Below, piece after piece: positions 21,022 to 48,395 of a stretch of 64,000 nucleotides of DNA. The position numbers were made by a program, and so were the translations under genes. Position 1 is the first letter of the stretch. The number at the start of each line of letters is the position of its first letter. Location: the NCBI GenBank assembly GCA_046292385.1, contig JBKBRF010000004.1:245212-309211 (forward strand), written 5' to 3'. Under the pieces are notes generated by a model. It saw only the letters and a program-made list of their open reading frames with translations, was not told the origin of the DNA and ran no database searches. Source of the DNA: Armatimonadota bacterium (GTDB lineage: Bacteria; Armatimonadota; SYMT01).

Positions 21022-21076
21022 AAAAGCCGCCCGCGGCGTGGTCCGATCAAACGACCACGCCGCCGGACGGCGGGTT
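21022..21076 (-). terminator. Terminator downstream of tmRNA
   Basis: GCGGCGTGGTC...GACCACGCCGC stem followed by TTTT on the minus strand. Confidence 0.6.
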
Positions 21077-21078
21077 AG

Positions 21079-21431
21079 TGGAGGCGCCGGGAGTTGAACC
21101 CGGGTCCAAAGGGATGCAGCTTAGACTTCTACGAGCGTATCCGATGATTTAATCTCGCGCTGTGCCCCCCATCGGCAGGGTGCATGCTCGCGCCAGCCCG
21201 CTAATACGCGAAACGGCCCGCAGGCAAAACCGTTCCGGTGGCCAGGTTTATCATCGCCCTACGCCGCGCCCCTGGCCGGGCTCGGATCGGACGCGCTAGC
21301 CTAGATTAGGCAGCGAGAGCGTAGCTCTGAGTGTTGTTCGCGTTTATGCGTTTGCCGCTTTTTACGAGGCCAGCGGCGCCTCGGCTCGCAATCTAAACCC
21401 CAAGTCTCCTCTGTCGACACCCATCGCCCCC
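21079..21431 (-). ncRNA. ssrA: tmRNA, tag peptide (A)ANNTQSYALAA
   Basis: 5' GGGGGCG pairs with 3' CGCCTCC-A including the G3-U pair; T-arm CCGGGTTCAACTCCCGG; tag ORF GCG AAC AAC ACT CAG AGC TAC GCT CTC GCT GCC TAA at 21341-21306. Confidence 0.96.
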
Positions 21432-22104: not shown

Positions 22105-22902
22105 TTAGTCCGTGTCCCAGGGATCGGCGCCGAACTGGTAGTGGCCGCCTGCGGCCTGCCCCCCACGGCTGTTGAACCACCAGTTGATGTCGTAGGCGGC
22201 GATCTGGTTGTTGCCGGAGACGAAGTTCACCTTCATCCACTTGGCGTGGCCGTCGTAGAACAGCGCGTTGGAGCCCTTGCTGCCGGTATTGGCGCCGTTC
22301 CAGGAGTACGGATCTGCGCCGCCCGCGTGCCAGTGCTCTTCCACGAGGTAGGCCAACTGCGCCGGTCGCTGGATCACCGCCTGCGTCACGTCTCCCACGA
22401 TGGACGCATGCGTGTCGTGAGCGTGGCGCTGGTAATAGGAGCCGCGCTCGTTCCCCGCGATCCACCGCCCGACCTTGTTATCACTCGGGCAGCGGAAGAT
22501 GCCCTCGTTCTTCGAGTATGGGTTGAGCCGCGCCGGATAGCCGGCGAGGACGCCGCGCACCGTGGCGGTGTTCGTTCCGGGCTGGTAGAGCCGGATTCCC
22601 CAGCAGGTGATGTGCGCCGCACCCAGGTAGGCGCCGGGGCTGCGGCCGATGGTGCTGCAGCCGCCTCCGTCCAGCGCGTCGAATGACTGGCGCGAGTCCG
22701 GGAAGGTCTCGTCGTAGTCCTGCGTGTACATCATGGCCGCGGTGCCGATCTGCTTCATGTTGCTCAGGCAGCTCGCCTTGCGAGCCGCCTCGCGGGCACG
22801 GGCGAAGACGGGGAAGAGAATAGCCGCCAGGATGGCGATGATGGCAATTACGACGAGGAGCTCTATGAGCGTAAATCCTCGCCTGTCTCGACGATGAAAC
22901 AT
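22105..22902 (-). CDS. Prepilin-type N-terminal cleavage/methylation protein (DUF1559-like, H-X9-DG family)
   Basis: [58 protein letters not shown]. Confidence 0.92.
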
Positions 22903-32373: not shown

Positions 32374-32416
32374 CAGAGAAGGCACACGCGCTCGTCAGGC
32401 GCGTGTGCCTTCTCTG
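32374..32416 (+). terminator. Terminator hairpin after the RRM gene
   Basis: Perfect 18-bp stem CAGAGAAGGCACACGCGC / GCGCGTGTGCCTTCTCTG. Confidence 0.75.
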
Positions 32417-32856: not shown

Positions 32857-33142
32857 GCGGGTCTCGGCATCCGTTGAGAAGTCCTGACCGTGCATTCCGC
32901 GCGAGTTTTCGCGCGGAATGCGCACCCGTGGTCGGGTGCCGCCGAGAAGCATCGCCACTGCCGACCCATCCGAAAGCAGCGACACGAGCTTCCGGATGAT
33001 TTTCGGCGGCCACGCACCCGGTGGTTGCCGTGCCCCGCACGCTTCTGTGTGAGAGCGTCACCGGGCGGCCTCGCGAGCGCGCCGCTCCGTCACAACGCAT
33101 GCTCCCGACGCGTATTGTCCGCAGAAAGGAGCGATAGCCACG

Positions 33143-35566
33143 ATGCGTCCCACCGGAGCCCGGACCCTATGGATCGCGACCCTCGCCCTCCTCCTCGCCT
33201 ACGGCGCCCCCGGCCGCGCCCAGGACAGTGCTGCCGGCGCCTGCCGGGAGCGGCTGGCGGCGATTGGAAAGGCGGTGACCGCGTATGAGCGGGAGCACGG
33301 CAGCATCCCGGAGAGCTTCACGCGGCTCTTCCCGAAGCACCTCACTGACAGGAGCCTGCTGATCTGCCCGTCGGACGAGCAGCCGCGCGCGTTGCGCGAC
33401 GGGGACCTGCCCGCGAGCTACCACTCGTGGTGGAACGACAACCCGGACGGAAGCGGCATGCGGCTCTCGCCGCCGCGCGCCGGCGCGACCCAGCGGGAGG
33501 TGCTGACAGCGCAGCGCCAGAACTTTGGCGACCACGTGCCGGTCACCGCGTGCTGGCGTCACCGCCTGCTGCTGGCGGTGAGCGGCGAAGTACGGCCGAC
33601 CGGGCGCTTCTGGCAGCAGGACCTGGTGGTGTTCCCGACCGTGGTCGCCTCGCTGCACCGGGACGCGCTGGGGGAGAAGGCGGCCTTCGATCGCCGTTGG
33701 GATCTCGCGGCGCTCGGAAAGTACTTGAAGTGGGCACTGGAGGCCGAGGTCCGGCTGGACGGGGAGGGCCGAACCCGACTGCGGGAAGCGGCCGCCGCGA
33801 TCCGCGACCGCGCCGGCGCTCCGGAAGGCGTGCGGAGCTTCACCGCCGGGATGGCGTTCGCGGTAGCAGGCGAGACCGACCCCGCCTTCGACGCCCTGGA
33901 ACGGTCGGTCCTCGCGAGCGACAGCCAGCACGAGCGGGCCCTGGAGCCGCTCGACGCGCTCTACCGGTCGGCGGCCCAGCCGGAGCGCGCGATCCGCTTC
34001 TACCGCAGGCTGCTCGACCGCTATCCCGGCGGCACCGGCTACGCCGCGAAGCTGGCCGACGCGTACCAGGCGGCCGGCCGGCGGGAAGAGGCGAGGGAGT
34101 GGTCCGCCAGGGCAGCGGCCGCGGCGGAAGCCGTCACCCGGCCGGCCTCCGTGGAGGCCTGCCGGCTCCGTCTCCAGGCGGTCCACCGGGCGCTGACTGC
34201 CTATCGCACCGATCGCGGAGAGCTGCCGGCGAACCTGTCCGACCTCGCTGCGGACCACCTGAAGCCGGAGCTGCTCCACTGCCCAAGCGACCATTCTCCC
34301 GGCAGCCTCGGCACGCCGTTCGCCTACCGCGACCCGGCGGGCTACGTCAGCTACGCGTATGAGATGAGCCTGGCACCTTCCGGTGGGATGCCGCACCCGC
34401 TCGGCCCCTTCCCCAGACGTCCGGACGGCTGGGGCAGCAGACGCGACGTGGCGACCCACCAGGGGACCTTCTACGGCCCGCAGGTTCCGGTCGTCCGCTG
34501 CTTCCATCACCGTCCCGCGGCGCGAGAGTCGAACGCCGACGACCAGGTGCTGAACCTGCGCGCGGATGGCTCGGTATACCGGAGTGGCTTCCGCTGGGAG
34601 AGTCACCCGGAGAGCGTGCGGATCGCGATGGAGGGAGCCGCGCGGGATCTGGATGCGGGCCCGGAAGTCTTCTCCCGGCGCTGGTATCTCGGACAGATCG
34701 ATCAGGACGCCTCCGACTGGATCGAGGAGCCGCAGCCGCCGGAGACCCGCGCCGCGCTGGTCCGGCTGGCGAAGGCGCTGGAAACGCGGGCGAAGCAGCT
34801 CAAGCCGCTCTCCAAAGCGTTCGCCCTGCGCGTGGCGGGACGGCTCTACCGTGCCGGAGGGGAGCACGCAGCAGCGATCTGTGCGGGCAAGCAGGCGCTC
34901 GGCCTGCTGCCCGAGAGCGACCCCGGCGGCCGGAGCGCGGCGAAGGAGCTGCTCGCCGCGGCCTATCGGAGTGCGGAGCAGTACGACCCCGCGATCGTCC
35001 TCTACCGCGAGCTTCACGAGGCGAGCCCCAGGATCGGCTACTACATGGTCCAGCTTGCCGAGCTGCACGAGCTGGCGGGGCGCCCGGAAGACGCGCGTGC
35101 CTGGCGCCAGAAGGCCGACCCCGGCCAGCGACTGGTGGGGCAGCCGGCGCCGGACTTCACCGTAGCGACGCCGGGCGGAGAACAGCTCGCGTTGAGCCAT
35201 GTCCGGCGCGGGGGGAAGGCGACGTTGATCAACTTCTGGTTCTATGGGTGAGGCGCCTGTCGTGAGGAGTTGCCTCACCTCCAGAAGCTGTATGCCGAGC
35301 TAAAAGGAAAGGGCCTGGAGATCATCGCCGTCAACCACGCCGACTCCAGGGAGACGGTGGAACGCTACTTCCGCACCAGCGGCTTCACCTTCCCGGTGGG
35401 GCTGGGGGACCGGGGGGCGGACGTCTTCTCCCGCTACGCGGTGGAAAGCTATCCCGCGAGCTACCTGCTGGATACTGACGGAAAGATCGTGTGGCGCGCG
35501 GTCGGCTACGGGCCCTCGACGCTGCAGGAGCTCAAGAAGGCGCTCGCCGGTCTCGGCGTGAAGTAG
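33143..35566 (+). CDS. Putative selenoprotein: secreted TPR protein with C-terminal TlpA/Redoxin domain (UxxC, Sec703)
   Basis: ORFs 33143-35251 and 35270-35566 are in the same frame, separated only by TGA 35249-35251. Readthrough gives APDFTV...LINFWFYG-U-GAC-REELPHLQKLY...YPASYLLDTDGKIVW, an intact thioredoxin fold. Confidence 0.85.
35262..35278 (+). promoter_or_regulatory. Candidate bacterial SECIS element
   Basis: GTGAGG-AGTTG-CCTCAC stem-loop starting at the 11th nt after the in-frame UGA, with G in the apical loop. Confidence 0.65.
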
Positions 35567-35697
35567 CAGCGCCACGAGCTACCGACGATGAAGGCGCCGG
35601 AGTCCGGAGCGGACCCCGGCGCCACCGCTGCCTTGGCTCGCATAAGCTCTCCCGGGAGTGGAGCGGTGGGAGTATCGGGCCCCCGGTTCGGCACTCA

Positions 35698-38647: not shown

Positions 38648-38720
38648 GGCGGGTGTAGCTCAGTGGTAGAGCGCCAGGTTGTGGCCCTGGAGGCCGGGGG
38701 TTCAATTCCCCTCATTCGCC
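38648..38720 (+). tRNA. tRNA-His (GUG), with G-1 and C73; CCA not encoded
   Basis: Acceptor GCGGGTG/CATTCGC, D-arm GCTCAGTGGTAGAGC, anticodon arm CCAGG-TTGTGGC-CCTGG, T-arm GGGGG-TTCAATT-CCCCT. Confidence 0.95.
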
Positions 38721-45936: not shown

Positions 45937-46082
45937 GGCTCCTCCGGGGCGATGGGCGGAGATGCGGACCACTTCGGCTCGGCGAAGGCGCGGACCTGCC
46001 GGAAGTCGTCCCTCCGGTGAAACCGCAGCGGCGCGGGAGACTCATACCACCCGTCTGCGACTGGTGTCCCCGGAGCTTTGTT

Positions 46083-48395
46083 TTGATCCTACGCACCCGT
46101 TCACTGGCCGGAGCCGGTCTCACGCTGGCGGTTACCGTCGGGATTGCGGGTCTCGCCGCGGCGGCCCTGGCGGCCCCCGGTGAGCGAGTCGATTTCGGGC
46201 GCGAGATCCGGCCGCTGCTGGCAAAGCAGTGTGTCGCGTGCCACGGGCCGAAGCGCCAGGACGGCGGACTGCGGCTCGACGTTCGCGCCCGGGCGCTGCT
46301 CGGCGGCGACAGCGGCCCGGCGGTGGTGGCCCGCGCCCCGGAGCGGAGCGAGCTGCTCCGCCGGCTCAAGACCGACGACCCGAAGCACCGGATGCCGCTC
46401 GGCGGCGAGCCGCTGGCTCCGGAGCAGATTGCGCTGGTGCAGCGCTGGATCGCCGCCGGAGCCGACTGGCCGGATGCGCTGGCGGGACGGGAGGAGGCTT
46501 CGGTCCACTGGTCGTTCCGGCCGGTCCGGCGCCCGCCCATCCCCGCGGTGCGCGCCGCCGCAGGCGTGCGGAACCCGATCGACGCCTTTGTCCTCGCGAA
46601 GCTGGAGGCGAAGGGTCTTCGGCTCTCCCCCGAGGCGAAGTCCGAGACCCTGGTACGGCGCCTCTACCTCGACCTGGTCGGCCTCCCGCCAACTCCTGCG
46701 GAGGTGGACGCGTACCTGTCCGACACGCGCCCGGATGCTTACCAGCGGCTGGTCGACACACTCCTCGCGAGCCCCCACTTCGGAGAGCGCTGGGGCCGGC
46801 ACTGGCTCGACCTGGCCCGCTTCGCGGAGAGCGACGGCTACGAGAACGACCAGATCCGCGCGAACGCCTGGCGCTACCGGGACTGGGTGATCCAGGCGTT
46901 CAACGCCGACATGCCGTTCGACCGCTTCACGGTGGAGCAGCTTGCGGGCGACCTGCTCCCGAACGCCCCGCTGGAGGCGCGGGTCGCGACCGGCTTTCAC
47001 CGCAACACCCTCTGGAACTCCGCCGCCTCCGCGGATAAGGAAGAGTTCCGCACCTACGCCGTCAAGGACCGGGCGGACACCACCGCCACGGTCTGGATGG
47101 GGCTCACCGCGGGCTGCGCGAAGTGCCACTCCCACAAGTACGACCCGATCACCCAGCGGGAGTACTATCAGCTCTACGCCTTCTTCAACCGCACCGACCA
47201 CGAAGACGTGTCCGTGCCCGGCGGCGCGGCGCCCGCGTTGAAAGCGGCGGAGCGGGATACCTTCGTGCACGTCCGCGGCGGCTTTCTGAACCCGGGCGAG
47301 AAGGTGGTCCCCGGCACCCCCGCGTTCCTCCCGCCGTTGAAGCCACGCGGCGCCGAAGCGGACCGCCTCGACCTCGCCCGCTGGCTCGTCTCTCCGAGAC
47401 ACCCGCTGACCTCGCGCGTGGCGGTCAACCAGGTCTGGATGCACCTCTTGGGAAACGGCCTGGTGCCCACCCCGGAGAACTACGGCCGAAGTGGCCAGCC
47501 GCCGACGCACCCGGAGCTGCTTGACTTTCTGGCGTCAGTATTCTCCTCTCCCGCAGGCGACGGAGAGACAGAGAGACAGAGGGACGGAGCGACAGAGGGA
47601 CAGAGAGACAGAGTGACAGGGAGAATCAGAGCCGCTTCCTCCCGGGGAGCGACTCCGCCAGCCGCAGAGCAGGGTTCGGAATTCATCCCTCATCCTTCAT
47701 CCCTCATCCCCCCGAAGGGCTTCGCTTGGAGCACCAAGGCACTCATCCGGCTGATCGTCAGCAGTGCGACCTACCGGCAGGCCTCGGAGCACCGGGAGGA
47801 GCTGACGCGGGTCGATCCGGAGAACGCGCTGCTCGGCCGGCAGAACCGCTTCCGGGTGGAGGCGGAGATCGTCCGCGACCTGAGCCTCTCCGTCAGCGGG
47901 CTGCTCGACCGAAAGTTGGGCGGGCCCTCGATCGTCCCGCCGTTCCCGGAAGGGCTGCTGGAGCAGCGGTTCACTAACGAGGCGCTGAAGCTGCCCGGGG
48001 AGGAGCGCCACCGGCGGGGCGTCTACATCCACGTCCAGCGCACGCTCACGCATCCCAGCCTTGCCGCGTTCGATGTGGCGGACGGCAACCAGGCGTGCGT
48101 CCGGCGCGACCGGAGCACCACCCCGATCCAGGCGCTTACGCTGCTGAACGATCCGGTCTTCGTGGAGTGCGCGCAGGCACTCGGAAAGCGGCTGGCCCAG
48201 CTCGGGCCGGACCGCGACACCCGCCTGCGAGAGGGCTTCCGGCTCTGTCTCTCACGGCATCCCAGCAACGCGGAGCTCGCACTGCTTCGGGAGCTGGTGC
48301 AGACGCAGGAGAAGCTCGGCGCGAGCGAGGACGCGGTCTGGCACGGGGTCGCGCGGACGCTGCTCAACCTGGAAGAGCTCACGACGAGGGAGTAG
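46083..48395 (+). CDS. Planctomycete cytochrome c plus DUF1549/DUF1553 (PSD1) protein
   Basis: CVACH and CAKCH heme motifs, HWSF.P, NPIDAF, GERWGRHWLD, HPELLD, QALTLLN. Start uncertain (TTG 46083 or GTG 46017). Confidence 0.88.
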   Translation: MILRTRSLAGAGLTLAVTVGIAGLAAAALAAPGERVDFGREIRPLLAKQCVACHGPKRQDGGLRLDVRARALLGGDSGPAVVARAPERSELLRRLKTDDPKHRMPLGGEPLAPEQIALVQRWIAAGADWPDALAGREEASVHWSFRPVRRPPIPAVRAAAGVRNPIDAFVLAKLEAKGLRLSPEAKSETLVRRLYLDLVGLPPTPAEVDAYLSDTRPDAYQRLVDTLLASPHFGERWGRHWLDLARFAESDGYENDQIRANAWRYRDWVIQAFNADMPFDRFTVEQLAGDLLPNAPLEARVATGFHRNTLWNSAASADKEEFRTYAVKDRADTTATVWMGLTAGCAKCHSHKYDPITQREYYQLYAFFNRTDHEDVSVPGGAAPALKAAERDTFVHVRGGFLNPGEKVVPGTPAFLPPLKPRGAEADRLDLARWLVSPRHPLTSRVAVNQVWMHLLGNGLVPTPENYGRSGQPPTHPELLDFLASVFSSPAGDGETERQRDGATEGQRDRVTGRIRAASSRGATPPAAEQGSEFIPHPSSLIPPKGFAWSTKALIRLIVSSATYRQASEHREELTRVDPENALLGRQNRFRVEAEIVRDLSLSVSGLLDRKLGGPSIVPPFPEGLLEQRFTNEALKLPGEERHRRGVYIHVQRTLTHPSLAAFDVADGNQACVRRDRSTTPIQALTLLNDPVFVECAQALGKRLAQLGPDRDTRLREGFRLCLSRHPSNAELALLRELVQTQEKLGASEDAVWHGVARTLLNLEELTTRE
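47544..47726 (+). repeat. In-frame tandem-repeat insertion within the DUF1553 gene
   Basis: GAGAGACA/GAGGGACA 8-mers and TCATCCC/TCATCCT 7-mers give 61 aa between F and WS, where the paralog has 4 aa. Confidence 0.8.

Follow-up and report, generated by a model that had tools for sequence, protein, structure and literature searches.

A selenoprotein gene hidden by annotation: evidence for a UxxC redoxin behind duplicated pilin-like/TPR modules in an Armatimonadota genome

We analyzed a 64,000-nucleotide stretch of an Armatimonadota genome (contig JBKBRF010000004.1, positions 245,212 to 309,211; hereafter "the window") and, within it, a forward-strand gene whose reading frame is interrupted by a single TGA. 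With a probability of roughly 90%, this is a genuine selenoprotein gene that annotation has hidden. The TGA stands at the first active-site position of a ResA/TlpA-type redoxin domain, it is followed by a conserved, covarying hairpin, the genome encodes the selenocysteine (Sec) machinery, and the same codon recurs at the same column in paralogues and relatives. These recoding signals, the machinery, the domain identities and the family relations were all computed here. The original prediction, made from the letters of the DNA, had described a secreted 807-residue protein combining tetratricopeptide repeats (TPR) with a UxxC thioredoxin. Its account of the codon, of the frame and of the way gene callers split such genes stands, and its account of the architecture and of possible client proteins is revised below.

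The TGA occupies the catalytic position of a redoxin domain

The frame opens with the ATG at 33143, stays open for 702 codons and meets the in-frame TGA at 35249-35251. Past this codon the same frame continues to the TAG at 35564-35566, and reading the TGA as selenocysteine (U) gives 807 residues. The codons INFWFYG-TGA-GGC-GCC-TGT yield U-G-A-C, followed by REELPHLQKLY, and the TGA is thus where the first Cys of a TlpA/ResA motif belongs, as had been predicted. Counted in this frame, GC at the three codon positions is 0.74/0.54/0.88 ahead of the TGA and 0.65/0.44/0.87 beyond it. The database record of the protein (P0002) is 702 residues long, truncated at the TGA, and 11 relatives in the database end at the same column.

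As read through, residues 665-800 matched Pfam AhpC-TSA (E 2.1e-21, profile positions 1-123 of 124), Redoxin (7.7e-19) and Thioredoxin_8 (2.3e-12), all above gathering scores and all straddling codon 703. A phmmer alignment to the solved ResA structure 4nmu (E 3.2e-22) paired U703 and C706 with the first and the second active-site Cys, respectively. The alignment also matched the conserved Pro of YPASYL and the E-x-P that comes after the motif. An AlphaFold2 (AF2) model of the second N-terminal module plus the redoxin domain (475 residues, 40-sequence alignment) had a predicted local distance difference test score (pLDDT) of 94.3 and a predicted TM-score (pTM) of 0.89, and a Foldseek search with it returned ResA and its relatives (TMt 0.82-0.89, root-mean-square deviation (rmsd) about 2 Å). 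The domain therefore has the thioredoxin fold, the C/UxxC at the start of helix 1 and the conserved cis-Pro loop that mark the TlpA/ResA/DsbE-like redoxins (cd02966). The catalytic domain is a ResA/TlpA-type redoxin with a U-G-A-C active site.

One alternative is that the UGA is mainly a stop codon, the functional product being a 702-residue pilin-like/TPR protein and the 3' redoxin remnant being untranslated or translated from the TTG at 35270. Because release factor 2 competes with Sec insertion in bacteria, a share of truncated product is to be expected, and there is indeed a 98-residue open reading frame (ORF) with a TTG start at 35270-35566. However, termination at the UGA would sever the redoxin fold just ahead of its active site, while the TTG ORF begins after the CxxC and has neither the active site nor strand 1. 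Only a frame read across the TGA gives a complete redoxin match, and the Cys-type relatives are single polypeptides of about 490-520 residues. We consider this alternative improbable.

The genome encodes the selenocysteine machinery

The genome (G000) comprises 7.04 Mb in 91 contigs, is 98.45% complete and has a GC content of 69.3%; the window is part of its contig C4. A search of this genome for selA, selB, selC and selD, which had been proposed as a check, found all four above curated cut-offs. The tRNA-Sec (selC) scored 66.6 bits against a cut-off of 47 and was called SeC(tca) by ARAGORN. Profile matches were 577.9 bits for selA, 367.5 bits for selB (profile positions 2-577 of 581) and 362.3 bits for selD, which itself contains one in-frame TGA. 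The tRNA-Sec, selD and selA follow one another in a compact cluster on contig C11 (87438-90122, minus strand), and selB lies elsewhere (C16:4680-6554).

TGA recurs at the catalytic column in paralogues and relatives

When the redoxin domain was searched against its own genome with tblastn, 13 hits were obtained (E<=1e-5). Eight of them have TGA at the first-Cys column and four have TGC, while in one the motif is lost. Since 8 of 13 redoxin paralogues carry TGA at exactly this column, its presence there is no chance event. All seven of the other TGA paralogues have a complete AhpC-TSA/Redoxin match, and only when the TGA is read through; standard gene calling would truncate every one of them.

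These seven genes encode further UxxC TlpA-like redoxins. Two are in tandem on contig C14 (TGA at 77773 and 76582, minus strand), and the others lie on C17 (7389, minus), C22 (72762, plus), C18 (43731, plus), C6 (130982, minus) and C13 (85289, minus). Their N-terminal extensions differ and have no Pfam match, and the hairpin design downstream of the TGA is the same.

The column holds either Cys or TGA outside this genome as well. Among 21 redoxin hits in 19 loci from relatives, TGA occupied the column in 5 and TGC or TGT in 16. A module-plus-redoxin gene in another genome of the phylum (G077) also has TGA there: its protein ends in ...NFWASW, and the DNA goes on with TGA-GGG-CCA-TGC and the rest of the redoxin domain. 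The G077 copy came from a genome search with alignment A1, in which four candidates were scored per genome and which gave at least 7 of 401 genomes.

In a maximum-likelihood tree of 34 redoxin domains (13 Sec, 20 Cys and one other), Sec and Cys forms are intermixed, and Cys/Sec exchange is thus recurrent in the subfamily. It takes about 8 changes of state to account for the tree (7-9 across bootstraps), of which the well-supported branches force at least 2. For example, a Sec form of genome G003 is sister to a Cys form of G002 with support of 95/92. The redoxin domain of the window falls inside a clade of 14 rows, 9 of them Sec and 5 Cys forms (support 93/90).

A conserved hairpin follows the TGA

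The stem of a small hairpin begins 10 nucleotides after the UGA. In the window gene it reads GUGAGG / AGUUG / CCUCAC, and in most paralogues GUGAGGA / GUU / UCCUCAC. With the register fixed, each of the 13 TGA forms retains 5-7 of the 7 pairs (mean 6.3), compared to 0-5 of 7 (mean 3.2) for the 21 non-TGA forms (Mann-Whitney p = 1.1e-6, although the sequences are related and hence not independent). The G077 gene adds a fourteenth TGA form, with 7 of 7 pairs (GUGCGGA/GGC/UCCGCAC). Thus all 14 TGA forms have the conserved hairpin and the Cys forms do not show such pairing.

In alignment A3 of the 13 sequences, 90.1% of cells were paired and the covariation score was 0.205 (shuffled mean 0.050); none of 500 shuffles reached either value. 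Six controls in which the register was slid gave at most 69.2% pairing and a covariation of 0.044. At pair 4 of the stem, six sequences have A-U, six have C-G and one has U-A. In addition, a Glu to Ala codon change (GAG to GCG) goes along with a synonymous Pro change (CCU to CCG), indicating selection on the RNA.

Bacterial selenocysteine insertion sequence (SECIS) elements, as characterized in PMC1088965, lie immediately downstream of the UGA and have a small apical loop with a G. The hairpin has both features, being placed directly after the UGA with a small G-containing apical loop. An Rfam scan of the window at gathering scores matched no SECIS family; only one tmRNA and one tRNA were returned.

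The TGA is kept in independent metagenomes

A recent nonsense mutation, or a sequencing or assembly error, would make the gene a pseudogene or conceal a real Cys at codon 703. A lone in-frame stop would ordinarily signal a pseudogene, and close Cys-type homologues exist (the 16 of 21 hits in the relatives' loci described above). On the other hand, the coding signature carries on past the TGA, the codon is at the same column in seven paralogues, five of the relatives' loci and G077, and the hairpin covaries and is specific to the TGA forms.

The TGA was also checked in contigs of three other soil metagenomes from three studies, these being low-depth Logan contigs rather than raw reads. At least part of 34900-35600 is present in twenty public runs, two of which may be the source. 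Contigs from runs X3 (35208-35358, one other letter), X4 (35163-35313, no other letters) and X5 (35195-35345, three other letters) all bridge the TGA, with no change listed at 35249-35251. The sole neighboring difference, 35248 G>C, is synonymous (Gly) and occurs on a paralogue-like contig with 10 differences. The TGA is thus kept in independent metagenome contigs, and we regard mutation or error as very unlikely.

Although some bacterial lineages reassign UGA (NCBI tables 4 and 25), decoding as Trp, Gly or Cys through a deviant code or near-cognate suppression is scarcely credible here, as the in-frame TGAs occur only at the catalytic Cys column and with the SECIS-like hairpin, a dedicated tRNA-Sec and selABD are present, and the frame of one redoxin paralogue ends at TGA, meaning that this genome uses TGA as a stop codon too.

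Several observations weigh against a selenoprotein of the kind proposed. ResA, DsbE and TlpA are the best NCBIfam hits of the redoxin domain, but, as for every NCBIfam model that the domain matches, the scores fall below the curated cut-offs (ResA NF002854, 91.8 vs 170; DsbE TIGR00385, 57.1 vs 123.15; TlpA NF047696, 35.6 vs 230). As all of these cut-offs are missed, the domain is a family-level relative and no orthologue of a characterized enzyme. The stem in the window gene is short, at 6 bp, and the 34-nucleotide segment from +9 folds with -8.8 kcal/mol. One Cys form keeps 5 of 7 pairs, and since conserved codons (R-E-E / P-H) fall within the hairpin arms, the protein accounts for part of the hairpin's conservation. 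Export is predicted from inspection of the N-terminus by eye. There is no ccm/ccs, sco or dsbD gene adjacent, and nothing therefore points to a substrate. Finally, the support is computational, from DNA and comparison; the one RNA run (X20) has no contig on the stretch and is uninformative on expression.

The N-terminal modules read as pilin-like heads followed by TPR-like helices

Residues 26-332 and 333-660 form a tandem duplication (32% identity over 328 alignment columns, E 3e-24). TPR matches were found at residues 271-328 in module 1 and, with Pfam TPR_12 (E 1.5e-08), at 538-589 in module 2. "TPR-thioredoxin", the label given in the original prediction, is incomplete: it leaves out the pilin-like domain with which each module starts.

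This domain was modeled from the first 160 residues of module 2 alone (AF2, pLDDT 92.0). Foldseek found no match to it in the PDB at E<=0.001. With VIA-align, the ten best chains were all type IV pilins or type II secretion system (T2SS) pseudopilins, among them PilA4, EpsG, ComP, PilE, PulG and PilV, with Z values of 5.9-4.1, which are middling for this tool. Most were aligned from about pilin residue 29, and the best match had Z 5.9 and an rmsd of 2.8 Å over 85 residues. Other signals pointed the same way, none of them, nor the Z values, being strong alone. Hidden Markov model (HMM) searches gave weak hits of the module to T2SSG/GspG (E 0.07-0.2). Among Atlas neighbors, which are leads only, one is named "T2SS protein G family" and in one cluster 17% of the members have PF07596. 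With hhalign, 35 columns were aligned to the helix of the DUF1559 protein encoded in the window (probability 12.6%), the shared motif being C-x3-L-x2-IG-x-A-x3-Y...P.

Two closer assignments were rejected. Membership of DUF1559 (PF07596) was ruled out, as there is no Pfam hit at E<=10 and the hhalign match covers 35 columns at the probability just given. A true type IV pilin or pseudopilin would have a class III signal and N-methylation segment, whereas this domain follows a Sec-type (secretory) signal peptide and recurs at residue 333; neither Pfam N_methyl nor SBP_bac_10 had a hit in the protein even at E<=10. We read the start of each module as a soluble pilin-like head that lacks the membrane or methylation segment, rather than as a true pilin. 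In module numbering, C8, C48-P49-x-D51, C121 and H124 are near-invariant in the family. From this pattern one may conjecture a C8-C48 disulfide (proposed to be C340-C381) and a Cys/His site.

When residues 1-660 were used in a word-based homologue search, nothing but the protein itself came back. A full HMMER search matched the N-terminal module in 452 representatives at E<=1e-3, 114 of them at <=1e-10 and 27 at <=1e-30. A typical relative consists of a signal peptide, one module and a redoxin. Of the 452 representatives, 149 were retrieved. Eleven end exactly at the Sec column (...NFWFYG, ...NFWFYH or ...NFWASW), 18 carry CxxC, 16 have a redoxin-like stretch without CxxC or a weak alignment only, and the remaining 104 lack a redoxin, being fragments or having other partners. 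None of the relatives listed combines two modules with a redoxin. The original prediction of an unusual architecture therefore holds for the duplication, but the combination of a single module with a redoxin is a recurring metagenomic family.

In several relatives with module and redoxin (P0018, P0020, P0022, P0025 and P0038), both active-site Cys/Sec positions are lost (for example FWASAGAPSR and FWKPSDMASA). Their sequences suggest non-catalytic, possibly binding-only, descendants.

The module has promiscuous partners (metagenomic relatives P0030-P0152) and no Pfam family of its own. In 42 longer relatives it was joined to Beta-lactamase-fold (5), BlaR1/Peptidase_M56 (6), Peptidase_S41 (5) and Peptidase_S9 (1) domains, and also to RDD, TIR, Pkinase (Ser/Thr kinase), SpoIIE and ECF sigma domains and to N-terminal redoxins. 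One relative, P0032 (1100 residues), has M56, the module, AhpC-TSA and a secretin domain in a single protein.

Gene features and genomic neighborhood

The features of the gene are collected in Table 1. Its N-terminus has, by eye, a basic n-region, a hydrophobic core and small residues ahead of Q27, and the N-termini of the relatives are alike; the 807-residue product is therefore probably exported.

Table 1. Features of the selenoprotein gene, in window coordinates.
Feature	Position	Strand	Remark
Shine-Dalgarno-like AAGGAG	33126..33131	+	11 nt before ATG; by inspection
Full selenoprotein gene	33143..35566	+	807 codons + TAG; TGA is codon 703
Probable Sec-type signal peptide, MRPTGARTLWIATLALLLAYGAPGRA-QD	33143..33220	+	cleavage after residue 26; by inspection
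Module 1: pilin-like domain (C34, CPSD 75-78, C137-W-R-H), then TPR-like helices	33221..34138	+	
Module 2, pilin-like domain, residues 333-492 (C340, CPSD 381-384, VPVVRCFHH)	34139..34618	+	
Module 2, helical TPR-like repeat, residues 493-660	34619..35122	+	Pfam TPR_12; all-helical in model
ResA/TlpA-type redoxin domain, residues 661-807	35123..35563	+	active site U703-G-A-C706
TGA, selenocysteine codon 703	35249..35251	+	
Bacterial SECIS-like hairpin	35262..35278	+	stem 35262-35267 / 35273-35278 (GUGAGG/CCUCAC), loop AGUUG
True stop TAG	35564..35566	+	

A scan for sigma-70 promoters at the locus found none, and no T-rich terminator follows the end of the gene, which may be monocistronic. Upstream of the gene, at 32374-32416 on the plus strand, is a perfect 19-bp inverted repeat with a 5-nucleotide loop, terminator-like with a poor T tail. 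An antisense ORF of 703 residues (33167-35278, minus strand) mirrors the selenoprotein gene. Its GC by codon position, 0.88/0.54/0.74, is that of the sense frame read backwards, and it is therefore a high-GC shadow ORF and no gene.

It had also been suggested that the protein might service haem-c and other Cys-bearing exported proteins encoded nearby. The neighborhood does not bear this out. The flanking genes found are of the housekeeping kind, encoding an AdoHcy (S-adenosylhomocysteine) hydrolase and an ArsR-methyltransferase on the opposite strand, LepA on the opposite strand, and a tRNA. The best named match to this LepA, from a metagenome-assembled genome of Chthonomonadales, has 69% identity and hints only weakly at the phylum. 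No ResB was hit in this 98.45% complete genome. Three Cytochrom_C_asm genes lie on contig C7, where none of the redoxin paralogues was located, and no association with ccs/ccm/resBC genes, as would go with a ResA- or CcmG-like role in cytochrome c maturation, was found. A candidate electron donor is encoded by a DsbD_TM gene on contig C84 (93.1 bits).

A PSCyt1/PSCyt2/PSD1 gene (46017-48392, plus strand) is situated about 10 kb from the selenoprotein gene. The window also encodes the N_methyl + DUF1559 prepilin-like protein (22108-22902, minus strand), which together with PSCyt1/PSCyt2/PSD1 makes a set that we take to be typical of Planctomycetota-like and related soil lineages. The tmRNA is at 21076-21431 (minus strand, 164.8 bits) and the tRNA at 38649-38720 (plus strand, 68.4 bits).

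Proposed mechanism

In the mechanism that we favor, UGA codon 703 would be decoded as Sec by SelB and tRNA-Sec, both being recruited by the small hairpin 10 nucleotides downstream, which is built from the codons of the CRE-E-L/F-PH peptide. The product would be an extracytoplasmic protein, if the predicted export holds, with a signal peptide, two tandem pilin-like/TPR modules and the C-terminal ResA/TlpA-type domain. By analogy with ResA, TlpA and CcmG, Sec703 may attack a disulfide, or another oxidized sulfur species, in an envelope substrate, and Cys706 may then resolve the selenenylsulfide. The oxidized Se-S form could be re-reduced through a membrane electron shuttle of the DsbD/CcdA type, and the pilin-like/TPR modules may act as adaptors that bind or localize substrates. 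Of this scheme, export, the way in which electrons flow, the adaptor role of the modules and the substrates are inferred.

Taken together, the data allow a more speculative reading, which we put forward tentatively and regard as possible but rather doubtful. The pilin-like/TPR module could be an undescribed family of extracytoplasmic adaptors or sensors, which in this lineage might steer a Sec redoxin to certain substrates in the envelope. The exported UxxC redoxins, at least eight in number, would share one SECIS design within the CRE-E-F-PH peptide, a pre-adaptation that would let Cys and Sec forms interconvert repeatedly.

Significance and comparison with known systems

The most immediate consequence concerns annotation. 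The public 702-residue protein loses its catalytic domain, and the same residue is where at least 11 relatives in the database are cut short. A soil bacterium also appears to invest selenium in at least eight envelope-type TlpA-like redoxins, which widens Sec use beyond the usual anaerobes and marine samples. Since a conserved peptide motif also encodes the SECIS-like element, and the tree mixes Sec with Cys forms, the subfamily offers a tidy natural system for Cys/Sec exchange. The pilin-like/TPR module, which is uncharacterized and has many fusion partners, merits a family definition. Overall, we see the result as solid and useful for annotation and for Sec/Cys evolution, and as conceptually unsurprising.

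ResA, TlpA and CcmG/DsbE are extracytoplasmic reductive thiol-disulfide oxidoreductases, and those characterized are membrane-anchored single domains of about 140-220 residues. The window protein resembles ResA of Bacillus, TlpA of Bradyrhizobium and CcmG/DsbE in its fold, the position of its active site, the E-x-P and the conserved Pro. In contrast to them, it has Sec in place of the N-terminal Cys, 660 extra residues, and no cytochrome-maturation or copper-chaperone gene nearby. A likeness to the type IV pilins and pseudopilins (GspG/PulG/EpsG) and DUF1559 is suggested by the first 150 or so residues of each module, which are modeled as a long helix on a small sheet. Unlike in pilins, the domain has no N-terminal methylation or transmembrane segment and occurs twice inside a soluble polypeptide.

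Three NCBIfam models for Sec-containing redoxins likewise describe thioredoxin-fold (seleno)proteins, but their motifs differ from the FW-F-Y-G-U-G-A-C-R-E-E-L-P-H of the window protein. Matches over the redoxin domain were weak, at 35.3 bits against a cut-off of 300 for NF041054 (ResA-like, WAxxUGC), 20.1 against 100 for NF053656 (TUGYCR) and 27.8 against 120 for NF040769 (SelL-related). Because these curated Sec-aware models miss the subfamily, a dedicated profile would repair many records.

Sec-containing TlpA-like or "thiol-disulfide isomerase-like" UxxC selenoproteins (cd02966) are listed in the cataloguing sections of PMC13188914 and PMC1088965. Table 1 of the 2026 review (PMC13188914) includes, among three relevant families, a "Prx-like thiol:disulfide oxidoreductase" (PF00578, UxxC), and Tables 1 and 3 of the 2005 Sargasso survey (PMC1088965) contain the first two of these families with UXXC motifs. 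The catalogued TlpA-like and Prx-like proteins have in common with the window protein the AhpC-TSA/Redoxin fold, Sec as the first residue of UxxC, a SECIS directly downstream and truncation by gene callers. The difference is at the front end, since no pilin-like or TPR region is mentioned in the available parts of either paper. The text of PMC13188914 that was available likewise makes no mention of TPR, pilin, multidomain, signal peptide, Planctomycet-, Armatimonad- or soil. A literature search surfaced no description of this architecture, which is no proof of absence, as the supplements of papers may list members. Sec-containing TlpA-like proteins are therefore already catalogued, and the concept is unchanged. 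The new elements are the duplication of the pilin-like/TPR front end, a module family not described before, and an eight-fold set of UxxC redoxins with a shared, peptide-encoded SECIS.

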